64,000 nt of DNA from an uncultured delta proteobacterium. Its GTDB lineage: Bacteria > Desulfobacterota > Desulfobaccia > Desulfobaccales > Desulfobaccaceae. The position numbers and the translations under genes were made by a program. The stretch is taken from assembly GCA_963777875.1 (NCBI GenBank), contig CAVZSK010000022.1, positions 119,353 through 183,352 of the forward strand, written 5' to 3'. The notes under the pieces are model-generated. The model worked only from the letters and a program-made list of their open reading frames with translations. It ran no database searches and was not told the origin of the DNA. Positions within the stretch are counted from its first letter, which is position 1; each line of letters begins with the position of its first letter. Positions 1,006 through 55,179 of the stretch are shown here, one piece after another.

Positions 1006-2661
1006 TCAAAAGCGGTATGAAAGCGTCGCCAAAGCGCTGCGCACCTGGTAGGAGGCCGAACCCTGGGTCAGGGCATTGGAGTAGAAGCCCACGACCCGGG
1101 CCGACACATGGTAGGTGAGCAGGTAATCAAATTCCACCAGGGAGTTGAATCCAGGAGTGTTGCTGCGTTGATTATAGTTGAGGTTGCTTTCTAAAGCCAA
1201 CTTGAACCGGCGGCTCCAGTTTTTTTCCAGGACGACCCCCCAGGAATGATACTTCAGGTTCTGAAAAGCGAAATAAGGAGCAGCGGCGCCGGGGGGAGCC
1301 AGTTCATTGGCGGGATAGAGATAATCGCCGTAACTAAACGTGTATTTGAGTTTGAACAGCGGCTCCGGCAACAACCGATACTGTAACGTGGCGCTCCAGA
1401 TCTGACGGAAATTGCCGTCCGAGTAAAAGCTCAGGTCACCCATGCCCACCAGGGTAAGCTTTTCCCCGAGGGCCTGATACATCCAAGGGATGACATCGTG
1501 GGTGTGGATCTTACGGGTCACGGCCAGGGTGTTGGAGGCGCTGGCGCCGAAGAAACTTTGGGACCAGAGACCGATGGGGTTAACGATGCCGTAGCGGTAG
1601 CGGTTATACCCGGCAAAATCATCAAAGAACAGGCCCCAGGGTCCCCGAAAAGGACCGAAGAACTCGATGACATCGTAATAGCTGTAGGCCAGGGAGAGGC
1701 CGGTGGCGCGAGTCGCCTGCCAGTAGGCGGCCACTCGAGCTGTGCCTGACTGCCCCCAACGGCCATAGTCGTTAAAGGCGCCTCCCGCCTCCAGGTAAAC
1801 CCGGGTGGCCGGGCGGAACTGAAGAACGACGGGCACAACATGGCGATGCAGGTTCTGGCCCTCGTTATTGCGGCGGAAGGGACCGAAGCCGCTGTGATAG
1901 TTCAGATAGCCGTAGCCGCTGCCAAGACGCACCCTGGGGTGGAGATATTGCCAGAATCCGTTCCACAGAGAAGCACGCCGATAGCCTTCAGCGTCTTCAA
2001 AAACGTTGACCAGGGTTTGAATTTGGGAAGTTATCAAGGAGCTGGCCTGGCGCCAGCCCTCCAGGGCTTCCCGGCTTTCCGGCCGGCTGGCCCGGGCCCG
2101 GTCAAAATGCCGGGCCGACATGGTATAGAAGACCGCGGCCAGATAGATGCGGCCCAGGCCCAGGTTGGCCTGGTAGTTGTAAGGATCGAGGGCCAGGACC
2201 TCCTGAAACAAGGCTTCAGCCTTAAAGGGTTGGCGCAGAGCCAGCAGGGTATTGGCCAGCTTGACTTTTAGTTCCAGATCAGCGGGGTGCGCGGCCAGCA
2301 GCCGCTGGTAGAGTTCCAGGGCCTGTTCCCGAAAAGCCGGCTGGGCGGCCAGGATATCGGCCCGGCGCTCAAGTAATTTGGGGTCGTCGGGGTGGCGGAC
2401 CAGCCCCTGGGCTACCGCGGCCAGGGCGGCGGCGGCCTCACCCTCTGCCACCTCCCGCGCAGCCGTCTCAAGGAAGGGCTCAACCTGGGACGTTATGACA
2501 ATATCCGGGGCGCCGACATCAGGTTCGGCGCTGGCCCAGACGCGGCCGGCCCCCCAGTTCAGCATCAGGACTGAGAAAACCAGCCAGGCCTTTAGGGTAA
2601 TTAGATAGCAGCTGCCTTGGAGAATTTTCTGGCTCATCAGTTTTCCGCCTTCACATAACAA
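1006..2661 (-). CDS. TPR-repeat plus outer-membrane beta-barrel protein
   Basis: Signal-like N-terminus, TPR repeats (e.g. AEALFQEVLALDPYNYQANLGLGRIY), aromatic-rich alternating C-terminal half, terminal Phe (LSYRF). Confidence 0.7.
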   Translation of the reverse strand: MLCEGGKLMSQKILQGSCYLITLKAWLVFSVLMLNWGAGRVWASAEPDVGAPDIVITSQVEPFLETAAREVAEGEAAAALAAVAQGLVRHPDDPKLLERRADILAAQPAFREQALELYQRLLAAHPADLELKVKLANTLLALRQPFKAEALFQEVLALDPYNYQANLGLGRIYLAAVFYTMSARHFDRARASRPESREALEGWRQASSLITSQIQTLVNVFEDAEGYRRASLWNGFWQYLHPRVRLGSGYGYLNYHSGFGPFRRNNEGQNLHRHVVPVVLQFRPATRVYLEAGGAFNDYGRWGQSGTARVAAYWQATRATGLSLAYSYYDVIEFFGPFRGPWGLFFDDFAGYNRYRYGIVNPIGLWSQSFFGASASNTLAVTRKIHTHDVIPWMYQALGEKLTLVGMGDLSFYSDGNFRQIWSATLQYRLLPEPLFKLKYTFSYGDYLYPANELAPPGAAAPYFAFQNLKYHSWGVVLEKNWSRRFKLALESNLNYNQRSNTPGFNSLVEFDYLLTYHVSARVVGFYSNALTQGSASYQVRSALATLSYRF

Positions 2662-3076
2662 TCATCGCCTGGTATGGCAAAACCATGACAATGCCGGGGC
2701 TTCAGGTCCACAAAGCGGCCGCTAACCAGTTCTTCGGGCTTTCAGACGAAGCCACCGCCGTTAAACTCAAATCGAACCAATAATACTCTAAAACAGCACT
2801 AAATTCCAGGACTGATGTAGGAGATAATAAATATTTTTCGGTCGTGTTTTCTGCCGATTTTCTCAAAAAAGCCACCTGACCCCATTTGCTCCGGCAGCGT
2901 ATTTCTGGTAAGTTAATCTGGTAGCAGTTTACAGGTTTTTGCCTTTACCCCGAACATACCTCAAGACGAAGATACCTCAGGTAACGAAACTGGGGGGTTC
3001 TTGCCCTTGAGGCCGACTATTTCTTTGCTGAGTGCGGCAAACTGAAAGCCTATTTCTCTAACAAGGAGATACCATC

Positions 3077-3705
3077 ATGCCCCGGCCGATCTCTATCTAC
3101 AACGGTTGCAGTGGCTGCCCTATCTTACCCAGGAGGAGTGCCGGGCTGCCGGAGCTGAAAACTGCGAAGATTTTTTGGGACGCCTACAAAACCGGAGTCT
3201 GGAACTCAAAGATGCTCCCGGTTTATCTCCCCACAAGCGGTATGCCTTGCAATTGGCTTTGCAGGGGGTGGAATTGGTACCGCCGGTGGAGGCCATGGCA
3301 TTGCCCCAGCCCACCCAACCGGGGTTACATGAGATCAATGCCCCGGGCCTGCAGGCGCCGGTATTGGTGAGCGGCAATAGTGAGATTACCCTGACGGTGC
3401 TGAGTGCGGTGTTGGCCACGACGGTGAGCCCATTCTATCTTCTGTTGGTGGATACCTTGGGGGACACCCTGGACATGGCCCTGATTTACGAAAGATTCAC
3501 GCCGGCCAAGGTGACGGCCGCGGTGCACGAAGCACACCTGGCGGATAAGGTCCAGCATCGCACCCTGATTATCCCGGGGCTGGCCGCGGCGCTGGAGCAG
3601 CCCTTGGCCACCGCAGCGGGTTGGGAAATCCGGGTGGGGCCGATCTGCGCCTTGGAACTGCCGCTGTATTTTGGGGAGTACTGGCAGCCGCCCCTGGGCA
3701 GCTAG
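3077..3705 (+). CDS. Small AcsC/CdhE/HgcA-like corrinoid-binding-domain protein (frameshift just after the ATG)
   Basis: SD AAGGAG precedes ATG 3077; one added base gives MPRADLYLQRLQWLP. Motifs PGLHEIN..APVLVSGN, YLLLVDTLG, KVQHRTLIIPGLAA and GWEIRVGP match the PF03599-type corrinoid domain. Confidence 0.8.
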
Positions 3706-3896
3706 CCGAAAGCTCATCTTTTCATCATCGCCTTTTGCTTGTAACCGCGCGGTGCAGATCATATAATAAAGTATTATAGTAATTGCCAAAAGTTATTTCC
3801 TGTTCACCCCCTGCCCTGACCTTTCCCCTGAGGGGAGAGGAAAAAATAACGAGGGGAGCTTTGGGCTAACAGGTTACCTTTCCAGGGAGATAAGGC

Positions 3897-4247
3897 ATGA
3901 AAAGAATATTGGTGGTAGATGATGAGGACCCTATCCGCAACTATCTCCACGAAGAGTTGACGGAGGCGGGTTACGAAGTACTGGAGGCTGCCAGCGCCCC
4001 GGAGGCCTTAAAAATCATTGAGAAAGAAGACCTCGACCTGGTAATCCTGGATATTCGCATGCCAGGCATGACCGGCGTGGAGGCGCTGCCCCGAATCCTG
4101 GGATTGAAAGAAAACCTGCCGGTAATTTTGAATACCGCCTATTCCCAGTATCAGCAGGACTTTATGGCCTGGGCGGCCAACGCTTACGTCATCAAGTCAT
4201 TTGACCTGACCGAATTAAAGGAAAAGATTGAGGAACTGCTAAAATGA
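3897..4247 (+). CDS. Single-domain response regulator (CheY-like receiver)
   Basis: ILVVDDE, LVILDIRMPGMTG, VILNTA, YVIKS motifs. Confidence 0.9.
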   Translation: MKRILVVDDEDPIRNYLHEELTEAGYEVLEAASAPEALKIIEKEDLDLVILDIRMPGMTGVEALPRILGLKENLPVILNTAYSQYQQDFMAWAANAYVIKSFDLTELKEKIEELLK

Positions 4248-4384
4248 GTTCCGAGTTTTGAGTTTCGAGTTAAAAGATAGCAGTAATGATTTCGAAAGAA
4301 AAGTTTTCGACTGGGCAATCCTGCACTTTTCTACTGGCTATAGTCGGGTGAAAGCTGACATTTAAGGAAGGGATCTCGGAGACC

Positions 4385-5623
4385 ATGGATAAACCACACA
4401 AGCTGACCACACTGATCATGGCCGGGGGGCGGGGAGAGCGGCTCTTTCCTCTGACCCGGGATAAGGCGAAGCCGGCGGTAACCTTCGGCGGCATTTACAA
4501 GATTATCGATTTTACGCTGTCCAACTGCATTAACTCCGGGATCCGCCAGATTTACGTACTCACCCAATACGGCAGCTTTTCCCTGGATCATCACCTGCGT
4601 ATGGCCTGGGAGGTGGTGAACCCGGAGATGGGGGAATACATTTACAGCAGACCGCCCCAGCAGGTGACGGTCAACCGGTGGTACCGGGGCACAGCCGACT
4701 CCATCTATCAGAATATCAGCATCTTACAGAACGAAAGACCGGATTATGTCCTGATCCTTTCCGGGGACCATGTCTACAAGATGGACTATATGGAGATGTT
4801 AAATTATCATATAGCCAAAAAGGCGGATCTGACTGCGGCCTGCGTGGAGTTTCCCCGGCTTGAGTCCACGGGTTTCGGCATCTTGCATGTGGATGAAGAC
4901 CTTAAAATCATCAACTTTTTGGAGAAGCCCAAAGACCCACCCGGCATCCCGGGGAATCCGGAATTTTCCCTGGCCAACATGGGCATCTATATCTTTAATA
5001 CGGAAGTGCTGGTCCAGGAGGTGATTCGAGACACCCGGCAGGCCGACAGCGACCACGACTTCGGTAAAAATATCATTCCTTCCATGGTGCAGCGGGGCAT
5101 GCAGGTCTACTCCTACAGTTTTCGGGATGAAAACAAAAAGGAAGTGCATTACTGGCGGGACATCGGCCGCATTGATGCCTACTTCGAAGCCAACATGGAT
5201 CTGGTGGCCATCGACCCGGTTTTTAATCTGTACGATCCCAAGTGGCCGATCCGGACCTATCAGCGCCAGTGTCCACCGGCTAAGACTATTTTCGGCGGGG
5301 ACCCCGGCCATATCCGGTCAGCGGAGGTGGAAGATTCCCTTATGGCCAACGGTTGCATCATCAGCGGGGCTACGGTCCGGCGCTGTATCCTGTCACCCAA
5401 CGTCCGGGTGGATTATTATGCCGAAGTAACTGATTCGATTATCTTTGATGATGTTTACATCGGCGCTCGGGCCAGGGTGCGCCGGGCTATTATCGAGGAA
5501 GGGGTCAAGGTGCCGCCCGGATTCACCATCGGTTATGACCGGGAAACTGACTCCCGGCGCTTTCCGGTCAGCGAGGGGGGCGTTGTGATTGTCCCCAATA
5601 ACGTCGATTTGCGGCAAGACTGA
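4385..5623 (+). CDS. glgC: Glucose-1-phosphate adenylyltransferase
   Basis: MAGGRGERLFPLT..AKPAV.FGG.Y.IIDF.LSN, WYRGTADS, LSGDHVYKMDY, YWRDIG. Confidence 0.97.
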   Translation: MDKPHKLTTLIMAGGRGERLFPLTRDKAKPAVTFGGIYKIIDFTLSNCINSGIRQIYVLTQYGSFSLDHHLRMAWEVVNPEMGEYIYSRPPQQVTVNRWYRGTADSIYQNISILQNERPDYVLILSGDHVYKMDYMEMLNYHIAKKADLTAACVEFPRLESTGFGILHVDEDLKIINFLEKPKDPPGIPGNPEFSLANMGIYIFNTEVLVQEVIRDTRQADSDHDFGKNIIPSMVQRGMQVYSYSFRDENKKEVHYWRDIGRIDAYFEANMDLVAIDPVFNLYDPKWPIRTYQRQCPPAKTIFGGDPGHIRSAEVEDSLMANGCIISGATVRRCILSPNVRVDYYAEVTDSIIFDDVYIGARARVRRAIIEEGVKVPPGFTIGYDRETDSRRFPVSEGGVVIVPNNVDLRQD

Positions 5624-19842: not shown

Positions 19843-20301
19843 TGTTGCACCACCAGTTGTTGTTCTTCCGGGACCACTGTCTCCGGATGGACATTTCGGG
19901 TTCAAGGGATTGGGTCCCAGCGCTTTTATTTTTTCCGTCATTTCTTTCACTGCGGCCACCCATTTGGGGGCGTCGGAGGCCGCGATCTCATACATGGCCA
20001 GGCGTTCGGCGCCCAGGCCGCATTCATCCAGTAAGTGCTGGGCATATTCCACACGTTCGTGAGCTCTCAGATTTCCTTCCAGGAAATGACAGGTCCCGGA
20101 TTCTCAGCCGCCCACGAAGATGCCATCGGCACCGGCCTCAAAGCCCTTTAAGATGTGGATAATGTCAATACGTCCGGTGCACAGGTACTTGACGATCCGC
20201 ACGTTGTCCGGATACTGCATGCGGGCCGAGCCGGCCATATCCGCGGCCGTGTAGGTGCAGTAGGTGCACAACAGGGCCAGTATCTTGGGGGAAAATTCCA
20301 T
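19839..20301 (-). CDS. mvhD: MvhD/FlpD hydrogenase delta subunit, selenocysteine-containing (UGA at 20104-20106)
   Basis: LLCTYCTYTAAD, LCTGRID, then GADGIFVGG-UGA-ESGTCHFLEGN in frame with the downstream ORF; UGA occupies the conserved Cys of GADGV.v.GC...CH; SECIS-like hairpin follows. The 3' end is inferred from a likely indel. Confidence 0.9.
20071..20087 (-). promoter_or_regulatory. Bacterial SECIS-like hairpin of mvhD
   Basis: mRNA AUUUCCU-GGA-AGGAAAU: 7-bp stem, loop starts with G at nt 24 after the UGA. Confidence 0.7.
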
Positions 20302-50520: not shown

Positions 50521-50802
50521 CCTTCTGGGATTGACGGCTCACTTCATGGCCAACCCGCAAACATATCTATTTATTCCAGGGGAAATTGTGGTATATTAGT
50601 GGACTAATAGGTAAATTGTCACTGGCCCCTTAATTGTCCTCTCCCCATGAAAGATCGGCTCTTATCCATGAGAACAATTTGTCAAGAAGTCTGGAAGGTT
50701 CTTTATCCATAGTCCTCTCGCCCCTTGCCGGAGAAGGTCAGGGTGAGGGGAGCGGACGAATCTGTTTTTACTGCGACTAGAATATCCTCAGGAGGAAAAT
50801 GT

Positions 50803-51973
50803 ATGAAACCAAAACTTACCATCTTGCTTGCCCTGGCCCTGCTGCTTGCCTGCGTCCCGGCCTGGAGCCAAACCCAGGAACCCATCAAAATCGGCGCCTT
50901 CTTCGCCCTCTCCGGCCCTGCCGCCGCCATCGGCACCCCCACGAAGCTGGTGGCGACCATGGCCGTAGACAAGATCAACAAGGAAGGCGGCATCAATGGC
51001 CGTCCCTTACAGTTGGTCATCGGCGACACCGAAAGTGATCCGGCTAAGGCTGCGGCCATCGCCAAAAAATTTATCCATGAAGACAAAGTCGCGGCCATCA
51101 TCGGCCCCACCCGCACCGATAGCGGTATGAATGTCAAAAAGATCGTCGAAGCAGCCGGGATACCCACCTTCATGACCGTGGGTGGCGATCCGGTCATTAT
51201 GGGCGGCGACAAATTCGGCTCCTTTACCTATGTCTTCAAATCCCCGCAGCGCTCCTCCGTGGCAGTTAAACGCCTCTACGCCTATTTGAAAGAAAAGCAA
51301 GCTCACCAATATTGCCCTGCTCACCGCCTCTGACAGCTTCGGCAAGGACGGCGAGGGCTGGCTGGAAAACCTGGCCACGGAATTCGGCCTCACCATCGTC
51401 GGCAAAGAGTCTTTTGGTCCCTCGGATACCGATATGACCGCCCAGCTTACCAAGCTGAAAAATGCTAACCCCCAGGCCATCGTCGTCTGGACCATCGGCC
51501 CTGCCGGTGCCATCGTCGCTAAAAACCTGGCCCAGATCGGCCTCAAACTGCCCCTCTTCCAGTGTCACGGCCTGCCTGATCCCAAATACATCGAACTGGC
51601 CGGCAAGGCCGCCGAAGGCAACCGCATGCCTGCCACCAAGCTCATGGCCGCGACTCAACTGGCGGATAATGACCCCCAAAAGCCGGTCATCAAGGATTTC
51701 ATTCATCTCTATAAAGACCAATATAAATTCGACCAGCAATTCCCCCTCAACACCCATTCCGGCTATGCCTGGGATGCCATTATGATCGTGGCCAACGCCA
51801 TGAAAAAGGCCGGCACCGACCCCAAAGCCCTGCAGCAGGCCATCGAACAGACTAAAGGCTACGTGGGCGTCTCCGGCATCTACAACCTGACCCCGGACGA
51901 CCATAACGGCCTGGGCGTTGACTCCATGATCATCGTCCAGGTGAAGGACGGGAAGTTCATCAAGGCGGATTAA
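50803..51973 (+). CDS. Branched-chain amino acid ABC substrate-binding protein, LivK-like (frameshift near 51298)
   Basis: SD AGGAGG; signal peptide; IKIGAFFALSGPAA, IN..GGINGRPL, GVSG.YN.TP.DH.G. Confidence 0.9.
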
Positions 51974-52071: not shown

Positions 52072-52106
52072 AAAAAAAGCCCCGGCAAAGATTACCGGGG
52101 CTTTTT
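52072..52106. terminator. Bidirectional intrinsic terminator
   Basis: AAAAAAAGCCCCGG-caaagatta-CCGGGGCTTTTT between convergent genes. Confidence 0.85.
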
Positions 52107-52127: not shown

Positions 52128-54707
52128 TTACGCTTCGGGCTTTGTGCCCTCCCCTTCCTTTTCGACGTGTTCCTTATACCAGACCGAATGATGCTTCTTG
52201 GCCCAGTTGCGGCTGACCTTGCCGTCCACCAGGATCCGCCAGGTGCCGGGGTTGGCGATGGTGCCCAGATAGGCGTGGGCAATAATCGCGGCCACGAAAA
52301 CCACTGCAAAGAAGCCGTGGATAGTAGACATCAGGCAGCTCAGGGTCAGGGGCAGGCTGGTCTTGAAAATCAGCAGCACCCCGGTAACACCCATAATCAC
52401 GGTGAGGATGGTGGTGATCCAGAAGAAGATCTTCTGCCCGGCGTTCATGTGGCCGGCCGGCACTTCCACTTCCTTGCCGCCCAGGTAGCCGCCTTTTTTG
52501 GCCAGCCATTCTTTGTCATACGGCTCAAATTTGGCATACTTGCCCCAGATGCCCACACTAATGATGGAGGCAACCAGGAAGATGAGCCCCACCACCCAGT
52601 GAATGATCACCGCCATCTCAGGAGTGCCGAAGGACATCCGCAGCAGGGTGACATTGTTAAAGAAGAAGATGTAGCCGGTAAAGGCCAGCACCAGGAAGCT
52701 TCCCATCCGGAACAGATGGGTCCAGCGTTCGGTCAGCGGGAACCAGGTGATTTCCGCCGGGGCCCCGTAGAAGTCGGCCACCTTCGGCCCCTGGCCGGTG
52801 TAGTGCAGCACCAGCCCAAACACCAGGATCAGCATGATGATGCTGACATACGGGGTCAGGTAGAGCTGGTGAAACTGGTTCAGGTAAAAGGCCCAGGGCT
52901 GGCAGCCGAAGAGTTTCCCCGAACTGATGGTGAGGGGCTTGCCATCCGGAGGTCCAAACATATCAGTGACAATCTGCCCCTTGAACATGTGAGCCTCGGA
53001 GGAATGACAGTCGCCGCACCCGTTCGCCCCCAGCGCCAGACCGGCCGCAGCCACATTGTGGTTGATATTGAACCCTTCCACGTGGCCGGCATGGGTGTGG
53101 TCGTCCTCCGAAACCACCTCGCCCTTGTCATTGAGATGATAATGCTTGCCCCCTTTATGGTAATAAGGCTTGATCTCCTGGAACCGCTTGTTCCCCTTCA
53201 GAGTTTCGCTCAGGGAGGTGAGCATCAGCTTGATCTGCTCCGGAGTATGGAGCTCGGGTTTCATGGGGTTGGCCGGCTTCAACTGGTCCTTGATCTTCTC
53301 AAAGGCCTTCTTATTCTCCCGGCCAAAGAGGGGGTAGTGAATGCCGTCTTTGTCCAGGTTTGTATAGAATACCGCCAACAGCGCATTCACCGGCGCCAAC
53401 TGGCCCCGTTTGAGCCGTTGGTAGCGGGGATGCCAATCGAAATAGTCACCGATCTTTTTAGGCGACTTGGCTAGATCCTCCAGATTAAATTTTGGATAAT
53501 TCACCATGGCGCCGGTGGTGACATCGAACCCTTCCCCCCCGGCAATGTGCAGGGTGGGGATGTGACAGACTTCGCAGGCCAGCTTCTCCAGGTGATTCGG
53601 CCGGATGCTCAGGTGGGCCGGACGGGGCGCGCCCATATAACCCTGCTCATGACAGCCCTTGCAGGTCTTGATGGTGTTGTCCAGGTCGTCCCTGACGCTG
53701 GAGACGTTTTCATCCCCTTTGGCAAACTGATGCTGAATCTTTTCCACCTTCAGCTTCTTGTCTTCGATGGCCGGATGGCAGTCGGCACAGGACATGCCCC
53801 GGGAGTTGTGGATGTCGAAGTTCTTGCGGTCGTTCCAGGAGAAGCCCCGCTTCTTGGAGTCGGACATGCCGTGACAGAAATTGCAGTTTTCCGAAGGGGG
53901 CGGATAAGCCAGATCCAAAACAATCTTGCCGTCTTCGTTGAACAACCGTTTATTGTAAACTACCTTGGGCTCCTGACCTTCTTTGACAAATCCGGCCACC
54001 TGGCCTATGCCCGAGGCCGCGGTGGAGGCCCATTTGAAGTTCAACATTTTCAGCTGTGTGTTACGTTCGGGAAAACCATAGCCCGGTAAATGGCAGAGCA
54101 AACAATCAGCCTCCACCACCCCCGACTTATCCCACTTGCTCTTGTAATAATCGCCGTCCAGGGATTGGGCCAGGGAGGGATCTGCCTTCACCCGCTGATC
54201 ATAGCGCTTGCCGTCCCGGTCAAACTCCAGGCCGCCGCCACCGGGGTGGCAACCGCCGCAAAATGGCGTACCGATGTTTTTGGGATCGGTGGGACCGCCG
54301 CTGACCCATTCAAACATGGCAATGTCGATCTCATCAGGGGTGTTGTTCTTTTTCTTCGCCAACTGGCGAAAGGAAGGCGGTCAGAACTTGCCCAGCATGC
54401 CGTCGGAAAGCACCCACGGCTTCCCTTTTTTGGCGGCAAAATCGTCGCTGATTTTGTCCCAGCCCTGCTGGAAGTGATAACCTTTCGTAATCTCGTCGTA
54501 CTTGTGGCAGGCGCCGCAGGTCTGGCGCGGGCTGTAAGGCTGATCGGCGTTTTCGCCGGTGAGTGGATTGATGATCTTGCCGTCTTCGGTCTTGAGATGG
54601 AAGGGGACGCAGGCCCGCTCCCTGGCCGCCGCCACCGTGATGAGCAGCAGCAACCCCAGAACCGCCAACAACAATGCCGCCGGCAGCCGAATCTCTCTCC
54701 TGGCCAT
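52128..54707 (-). CDS. Selenocysteine-containing octaheme cytochrome c fused to an FdnI-type cytochrome b (about 859 aa; UGA at 54381-54383)
   Basis: SD GAGGAGG, signal peptide. ORFs 54381..54728 and 52128..54362 are in frame and joined by GMLGKF-UGA-PPSFRQL. Eight CxxCH motifs; C-terminal ERWTH, IIHW, NAGQK..FW, IHG..AHAY, WAKKHH. Confidence 0.85.
54355..54370 (-). promoter_or_regulatory. Bacterial SECIS-like hairpin of the octaheme gene
   Basis: mRNA UUCGCC-AGUU-GGCGAA; loop starts 17 nt after the UGA with G at loop position 2. Confidence 0.7.
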
Positions 54708-55179
54708 GGGCACTCTCCTCCTCGGCAAATGATATGATTGCTGTTAAAATGTATCTGTTTTCAACCTTAAGTTCAATTGTTTTTTATGGCTAATTTCTCC
54801 TTGAGAACTATTCCTGCCTTTTCCAGGTTGAGGACAACACCGGCAATCGAGGGTTGAGTCATAGAAGCTCCCGGTTCCAGAGTCTTCGGCAAGCGGAAGT
54901 ACGCGTGCCTCCGGAGCAAGCAGCCGGACCTCAACGCTGACAGCTTCCGGGGCCCCAACCCGGTATGTGCAGCGGTTATCTCCCGGTAAATGCTCCCGGC
55001 CTTTTGAATGGCACCATGGCATACCTCTGGTTATCAAAAAACCTCGTCAGGGCAGACTTTTTGATTCATAATAATTGCAACAAATGACAACCACTTCCGG
55101 CTTTACACGGTTTAACGAAATGCTTACTTACTAATATATCGATTGACAGGATGAATAATTACCACATCGAGGAGGATTT

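Follow-up and report, generated by a model that had tools for sequence, protein, structure and literature searches.

A predicted selenoprotein family joins an OTR-like octahaem cytochrome c to an FdnI-type cytochrome b in one chain

One gene annotated as two

The DNA analyzed here is a 64,000-nucleotide (nt) stretch, called the window below, of contig CAVZSK010000022.1 from an uncultured delta proteobacterium of the Desulfobaccales (assembly GCA_963777875.1). On its minus strand, positions 52128-54707 are annotated as two open reading frames (ORFs) that lie in the same frame and are separated by a single TGA. Translation of the whole segment with TGA read as selenocysteine (Sec, U) gives 859 residues with one such residue, U109, in the context SDGMLGKF-U-PPSFRQLAKK. 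The two annotated "genes" are one gene, and the membrane protein it encodes connects eight c-type haems and a Sec residue on the outside to a quinone-reactive cytochrome b. The sequence argues, with a probability that we put at roughly 0.85, that UGA109 is decoded as Sec by means of a selenocysteine insertion sequence (SECIS) and that the product consists of an exported octahaem cytochrome c domain, a transmembrane helix and a dihaem cytochrome b. The features of the gene are as follows, OTR denoting octahaem tetrathionate reductase, AF2 AlphaFold2 and pLDDT the predicted local distance difference test.

52128..54707 (-): whole gene, 859 codons plus a TAA stop; ATG start at 54707, with a possible upstream TTG start at 54728; orthologues read through likewise
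54624..54707 (-): predicted signal peptide, about residues 1-28, from the sequence and a hydrophobic helix at residues 10-27 of the AF2 model
54609..54611 (-): Cys33, near the mature N-terminus; Cys in most Sec-type homologues, His in all Tyr- or Cys-type fused homologues
54381..54383 (-): in-frame TGA, read as selenocysteine U109; all 52 distinct orthologous sequences have TGA at this column, and homologues that have no TGA carry Cys or Tyr
54354..54371 (-): SECIS-like hairpin UUUCGCC-AGUU-GGCGAAG, starting 9 nt past the UGA and spanning 9-26 nt; codons F113-K118
52908..54623 (-): predicted periplasmic OTR-like octahaem cytochrome c domain, residues 29-600 (AF2 pLDDT 92.3, plus Foldseek and hhalign matches)
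54504-54518, 54246-54260, 54090-54104, 53871-53885, 53775-53789, 53649-53663, 53562-53576 and 53004-53018 (-): the eight CxxCH haem motifs, starting at residues 64, 150, 202, 275, 307, 349, 378 and 564
52794..52898 (-): linking transmembrane helix, residues 604-638, a helix in the AF2 model
52161..52751 (-): FdnI-type dihaem cytochrome b, residues 653-849, from TIGR01583, PF01292, the alignment with 1kqf_C and Foldseek
52072..52101 (-): intrinsic terminator GCCCCGG, 9-nt loop, CCGGGGC, then T7, found by folding

An earlier reading of this DNA from its letters alone (the original prediction) had proposed a hidden selenoprotein with a signal peptide, the eight listed CxxCH motifs, one transmembrane helix and an FdnI-type cytochrome b with four His ligands in a single chain. 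Every one of these elements was recovered, and the selenoprotein proposal itself is borne out by the TGA found in all 52 orthologous sequences and by the frozen hairpin that follows it.

The split seen in this annotation recurs throughout the databases, and gene callers cut the family in two at the TGA everywhere. The nearest 79 protein-database clusters, of about 700-760 residues, all start just past the TGA codon, and a read-through annotation was found in none of the 79. The upstream part is matched by 221 clusters of "hypothetical proteins" of about 106 residues, and all 120 of those examined stop exactly at the TGA, ending in GK followed by F or M. In hundreds of database clusters the family therefore appears as two entries, a "hypothetical protein" of ~106 residues and, lacking a leader, a "formate dehydrogenase subunit gamma". 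Because of this division the selenoenzyme would be overlooked when metabolism is reconstructed from the genomes of sulfate reducers, of syntrophs or of communities in wetlands and wastewater.

The in-frame TGA, its hairpin and the decoding machinery

When genomes were read through stop codons, all 30 full-length orthologues from the same order had exactly one TGA, at the same column (two families, 13 genera and identities down to 71%). A wider scan that took one genome per species yielded the 52 distinct TGA-bearing sequences, from about seven phyla that include Thermodesulfobacteriota, Myxococcota, Spirochaetota, Eisenbacteria, Delongbacteria and Bacillota. Among the hosts are Desulfobaccales, Syntrophobacterales, Desulfobacterales, Desulfobulbales, Desulfovibrionales, Leptospirales, a metagenome-assembled genome of Myxococcota and the cultured Bacillota Ammonifex thiophilus and Desulfothermobacter acidiphilus; those Sec-type hosts that are named are mostly sulfate, sulfur or thiosulfate reducers. 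A contig assembled from wetland DNA shows zero differences across the TGA region. Since the TGA is shared by the 30 order-level orthologues and the 52 distinct sequences and the wetland contig is identical there, comparison of these sequences excludes chance or sequencing error as its source. An RNA-library contig from a relative (12 differences) also spans the TGA, and several RNA contigs overlap parts of the gene (four runs, as assembled contigs). These contigs are weak evidence, indicating presence in RNA libraries and falling short of proven transcription, and no significance attaches to the stretches that they leave uncovered.

In the course of the scan, the orthologue on a contig binned as Acidobacteriota (L078) was found to be nearly identical to that of Fundidesulfovibrio agrisoli (L077), the terminal branches being 0.024 and 0.029. 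That contig is probably mis-binned.

The hairpin named in the original prediction, with a loop G 18 nt past the UGA, is present as described; its stem has 6-8 base pairs and its AGUU loop is invariant. Codons +4 to +8 after the TGA are TTT CGC CAG TTG GCG, and their synonymous sites are frozen in the TGA genes only. In those genes TTT accounts for 48/48 Phe codons and CGC is found in 51/52 sequences (the sole exception, CGT, pairs too), with CAG, TTG and GCG each found in 52/52. The F-R-Q-L-A-K peptide that the hairpin encodes is kept in all homologues, with or without the TGA, and the 22 homologues with Tyr or Cys in place of Sec use mixed codons for the same residues (TTG for 4 of 21 Leu, GCG for 5 of 20 Ala and TTT for 4 of 13 Phe). 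Synonymous sites that flank the hairpin vary freely in the TGA genes themselves: Gly is GGG in 27 and GGC in 20, Pro is CCC in 26 and CCT in 22, and Ser is TCT in 28, TCC in 17 and TCG in 6. Both Bacillota sequences carry one compensatory change in the stem, from U-A to C-G.

That the genome decodes Sec is supported by its gene content. The assembly, which is 74% complete, contains selA and selB, with above-cut-off scores of 614 and 340 bits respectively. An in-frame TGA was found in four MvhD/FlpD genes of the genome, three of which lie on other contigs. The fourth lies in the window at 19915-20283 (-), and the mvhD that had been cited from the first as an independent sign of Sec decoding is thus real. 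Two results tell against Sec insertion at U109. Neither selD nor tRNA-Sec was found in the 74%-complete assembly by ARAGORN, Rfam RF01852 or TIGR00476, so the expected set of Sec genes was recovered in part only. We attribute this absence to the incompleteness of the assembly; all five relatives checked possess a TGA-containing selD and a tRNA-Sec scoring 72-80 bits (four are of the same genus, and one has a 97%-identical orthologue). The second is that the hairpin taken alone is thermodynamically ordinary, with a folding free energy of -9.4 kcal/mol, a z-score of -0.95 and 30 of 200 shuffled sequences folding as well. The significance of the hairpin comes from its conservation, not from its thermodynamics.

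The absence of selD and tRNA-Sec from this assembly and the splitting of the gene at this point by gene callers everywhere would both suit a TGA that is a real stop, dividing two genes or marking a pseudogene, or one at which read-through inserts Cys or Trp and no selenium. With a stop, however, the downstream piece would carry seven c-haem motifs that need export and would be without a signal peptide. The frame and the codon are kept in 52 distinct sequences, the hairpin is under purifying selection only where it accompanies the TGA, and the genome contains selA, selB and other TGA-bearing selenoprotein genes. We regard a stop or a selenium-free read-through as highly improbable.

The octahaem domain and residues 33 and 109

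A first AF2 model of the whole protein (38 sequences) was too poor near Sec109 to be used, pLDDT being below 50 at residues 100-167. A second model, of residues 25-600 from a 111-sequence alignment, had a mean pLDDT of 92.3 and a predicted template modelling score of 0.91. Its sole significant match among solved structures was the Shewanella octahaem tetrathionate reductase 1sp3 (Foldseek E 3.3e-7, probability 1.00, template modelling scores 0.36/0.46). Profile comparison by hhalign with true TIGR04315 members from related genomes agreed, giving 99.7% probability and E 1.6e-26 over 377 columns that run from haem motif 1 to haem motif 8. Against the TIGR04315 model itself, the protein scores 28 bits (family cut-off 375) and only residues 200-386 are covered. 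Sequence searches of the PDB returned only FdnI and a short NrfA-like two-haem module, with nothing over the Sec109 segment. The profiles and the model together place the haem domain as a remote member of the OTR superfamily, outside the OTR family proper, and the OTR-like character first proposed for it thus stands.

In both this domain and OTR (Shewanella oneidensis SO4144, PDB 1SP3) the eight CxxCH motifs occur in the same order and can be aligned, and the segment that bears Sec is shared. The differences are that the present domain has about 570 residues rather than about 440, owing to large insertions, that it is covalently linked to a cytochrome b, OTR being a soluble protein, and that its Sec lies off the "N-x-F-C/U" register. 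Sec109 sits between haem motifs 1 and 2. In OTR the corresponding segment provides Lys56, a ligand of the active-site haem 2 (PMC3769277), and in true TIGR04315 members it also holds a family-invariant Cys in the motif G-K...N-x-F-C. A Sec form of the OTR family is listed in the May 2026 catalogue of prokaryotic selenoproteins (PMC13188914), and many genuine OTR-family genes in Thermodesulfobacteriota were found to carry one in-frame TGA. In four of these true TIGR04315 loci (L137, L139, L142 and L143) Sec replaces exactly the invariant Cys of the active-site loop, with "N-S-F-U" in place of "N-N-F-C".

In a subset of the Sec-type orthologues, haem motif 1 is lengthened to CxxxxCH in place of CxxCH, as in "CGAQGCH" or "CGTSNCH" (L031, L038, L074, L077, L082, L084, L098 and L108). 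These belong to Desulfovibrionales, Leptospirales and two Desulfobaccales.

A second position, residue 33, varies together with the type of homologue. It lies a few residues past the predicted signal-peptide cleavage site, and its states were taken from the multiple alignment, which is to be trusted over the pairwise states shown on the tree, as the latter are noisy for Tyr-type rows. Residue 33 is Cys in 45 of the 52 Sec-type loci and in 118 of 120 clusters of N-terminal fragments, and it is His in every one of the 22 fused homologues whose residue 109 is Tyr or Cys. Such an alternation of Cys and His would fit an axial haem ligand and not a disulfide partner. A lipoprotein cysteine was also considered for Cys33 and rejected, as the preceding R-E-R-A is no lipobox.

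Cys is found at the Sec column in Ignavibacteriota-type fused forms and in a split paralogue from a closed genome of the same genus (L123). The latter holds Cys in each of the two key columns, "GVCPPF" and "NWCSPAPLYRQLA", and consists of a multihaem cytochrome of 728 residues with a single membrane helix at its C-terminus (2316-4502, minus strand) and a separate 283-residue cytochrome b gene (1607-2458, minus strand). No TGA-bearing orthologue was found in the L123 genome with the present query. The Cys/Cys pattern recurs in 14 further clusters at 50% identity, and the combinations seen at residues 33 and 109 are Cys/Sec, Cys/Cys, His/Cys, His/Tyr and His/Sec. A quick maximum-likelihood tree, with the split paralogues taken as its root, shows Sec forms as basal to either side within the fused family and gathers the His/Tyr forms into a single derived clade; its rooting is unsafe, as are several of its long branches.

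A related subfamily of about 1100 residues (P0258, P0261, P0263, P0265-P0267 and P0270) keeps Cys33, as "CPPF", and has varied residues other than Cys at the Sec column ("YGKW-x-LLYQRELAP"). The retention of Cys33 there without Cys at the other column indicates that Cys33 has a role that does not depend on residue 109.

The cytochrome b domain and the proposed reaction

The C-terminal 200 residues score above cut-off for both TIGR01583 (119.9 bits against 115.85) and PF01292 (Ni_hydr_CYTB; 65.7 against 30.1). His664, His703, His797 and His811 align with the four haem ligands of FdnI, the gamma subunit of E. coli formate dehydrogenase-N (PDB 1KQF chain C; 2.2e-30), and Foldseek superimposes the four-helix domain on 1kqf_C with a template modelling score of 0.84. 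Unlike FdnI, the present protein lacks FdnG and FdnH partners; the additional membrane helix, supplied by FdnH in formate dehydrogenase-N, here belongs to the same chain, which also bears the haem c domain. The protein is wrongly labelled "formate dehydrogenase subunit gamma" in databases.

A single-subunit quinol oxidoreductase, as first suggested for this gene, is a reasonable reading of the domain content. By analogy with characterized multihaem enzymes, the protein may be a self-contained, quinol-oxidizing respiratory enzyme in which Sec109 acts as nucleophile on a chalcogen substrate, probably with Cys33 as a haem ligand, and we rate this function slightly below even odds. Menaquinol would be oxidized at the cytochrome b domain, and the electrons would cross the membrane by the two b haems and then pass along the c haems to an active-site haem, where Sec109 would attack polysulfide, tetrathionate or selenite. 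Cys33 would probably ligate that haem, as Cys239 does alongside Sec325 in MccSep. On this reading the Tyr109/His33 homologues, which occur in bacteria that are not sulfur specialists, would be derived forms that conduct electrons and have no catalytic role.

MccSep/ExtKL (GSU2937-2936), the pentahaem polysulfide reductase of Geobacter sulfurreducens, provides the model for such a site: its Cys239 ligates haem 2, and its Sec325 is essential for reduction of polysulfide and selenite (PMC13510729). Like the present protein it is a periplasmic multihaem cytochrome c whose annotation is split at an in-frame UGA, and both families are found mainly in sulfur-cycling Desulfobacterota. Sec lies beside a Cys-ligated haem in MccSep, and the counterpart here would be the lineage-specific Cys33 at a position where relatives have His. 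The two differ in that MccSep has five haems, a C-terminal immunoglobulin-like domain that bears Sec in a D-G-U-P loop, and a soluble tetrameric form. No sequence match to MccSep was obtained, either as NF040886 among the NCBIfam matches at E <= 0.1 or as a hit in the PDB sequence search. The resemblance is functional and convergent and is not one of family membership.

A more extended version of this reading, which we put forward tentatively and consider somewhat unlikely as a whole, is that the protein is a one-chain terminal oxidoreductase with a Sec109/Cys33-haem dyad, set in an OTR-type active site, that arose independently of that in MccSep. The Sec/Cys state would be ancestral for the fused family, and the widespread Tyr109/His33 forms of Acidobacteriota, Zixibacteria and others would be former enzymes that became electron conduits after loss of Sec.

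CbcL (GSU0274) of Geobacter sulfurreducens suggests a different role, as it too joins a periplasmic multihaem cytochrome c to an FdnI/HydC-type dihaem cytochrome b in one quinone-linked polypeptide (PMC9129911). A genuine selenoprotein of this general architecture could serve as a CbcL-like conduit that delivers electrons from menaquinol to soluble periplasmic carriers, with Sec (and Cys33) only ligating a haem or tuning its potential. The Tyr/His-type homologues, which are widespread in non-sulfur bacteria, resemble plain conduits, and no substrate-specific accessory gene is conserved nearby at the 110 loci compared. Sec is costly, however, and in known proteins it is found at catalytic redox sites; both of the other multihaem selenoproteins compared, MccSep (PMC13510729) and the OTR family, bear it beside the active-site haem. 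Moreover, the haem domain is homologous to the enzyme OTR and not to the compact 250-residue nonahaem domain of CbcL. By its published description (PMC9129911), CbcL packs nine bis-His haems into about 250 residues and crosses the membrane with six helices, Sec not being reported, whereas the present protein has eight haems in about 570 OTR-like residues and 1+4 membrane helices. CbcL is an analogue, not a relative, and we consider it unlikely that the protein is a conduit of this kind.

The similarity to formate dehydrogenase-N also admits electron flow in the reverse direction, in which a reduced periplasmic compound, such as sulfide or polysulfide, would be oxidized at the Sec/haem site and menaquinone reduced on the cytoplasmic side, with energy conserved as in that enzyme. 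The cytochrome b domain of formate dehydrogenase-N (1KQF) reduces menaquinone with periplasmic electrons, and the present domain scores above the FdnI cut-off with all four His ligands aligned. The His/Cys haem enzymes TsdA and SoxAX likewise act oxidatively (cited in PMC13510729). Nevertheless, the nearest functional analogues, OTR and MccSep, work as reductases, most of the hosts live by reducing sulfate or sulfur and not by oxidizing sulfur, and the direction of electron flow is fixed by no feature of the sequence. We judge an enzyme that runs in this oxidative direction to be quite unlikely.

Several observations weigh against the preferred reading of a quinol-oxidizing enzyme with a catalytic Sec109. 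At the Sec column most distant full-length homologues carry Tyr, and Cys is found in only some of them; the Sec position is therefore not universally required for catalysis. The expectation that homologues would show TGA or Cys at this column held for the close orthologues, all of which have TGA, and for the split paralogue, which has Cys, and failed for most of the distant homologues. Cys33 is itself exchanged in six Sec-type sequences, being His in four and Ala or Val in the two Bacillota. The register of Sec109 within the OTR loop differs between two profile alignments: in one G106-K107 pairs with the G-K of OTR and Sec falls at K107+2, and in the other the family-invariant K119 pairs with the OTR Lys. 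The Sec109 protein has no N-x-F-C motif, and the conflict leaves location in the same inter-motif segment as the shared feature. Finally, the quinone site of FdnI faces the cytoplasm, which is compatible with electrons passing either into or out of the quinone pool.

In a full-text literature search for selenoproteins among multihaem and octahaem cytochromes, the sole finds were MccSep/ExtKL, the GSU2204 family and the OTR family, none of them fused to a cytochrome b, and the present family is absent from the May 2026 selenoprotein catalogue (PMC13188914). It is a widespread family of multihaem selenoproteins that belongs to the OTR superfamily and carries its own quinol module. Multihaem cytochrome selenoproteins were shown to act in sulfur respiration only recently (MccSep, 2026), and the family described here would be a second, independent solution. 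The presence of a quinol-oxidizing module in the same chain would make it an unusually simple system for studying the coupling of quinol to a Sec/haem site, and the natural variants at residues 33 and 109 would allow direct tests of the contributions of Sec and of a Cys haem ligand.

The gene stands alone at its locus, as originally predicted, with both flanking genes on the opposite strand and with its own terminator. The latter is strong (a 7-bp G+C stem plus T7), and begins 26 nt past the stop codon; a scan for consensus terminators missed it because its loop is 9 nt long, and it was recovered by folding. Clustering of neighbouring ORFs over 110 loci gave no conserved partner gene, none being present at more than 20 of the 110, in agreement with the proposed absence of a Mo/W catalytic partner. 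Beyond the terminator, at 50725-51973 on the plus strand of the window, a periplasmic binding protein of the branched-chain-amino-acid type is present as two successive ORFs in different frames (50725-51333 and 51434-51973), a pattern that points to a frameshift, a pseudogene or faulty assembly.

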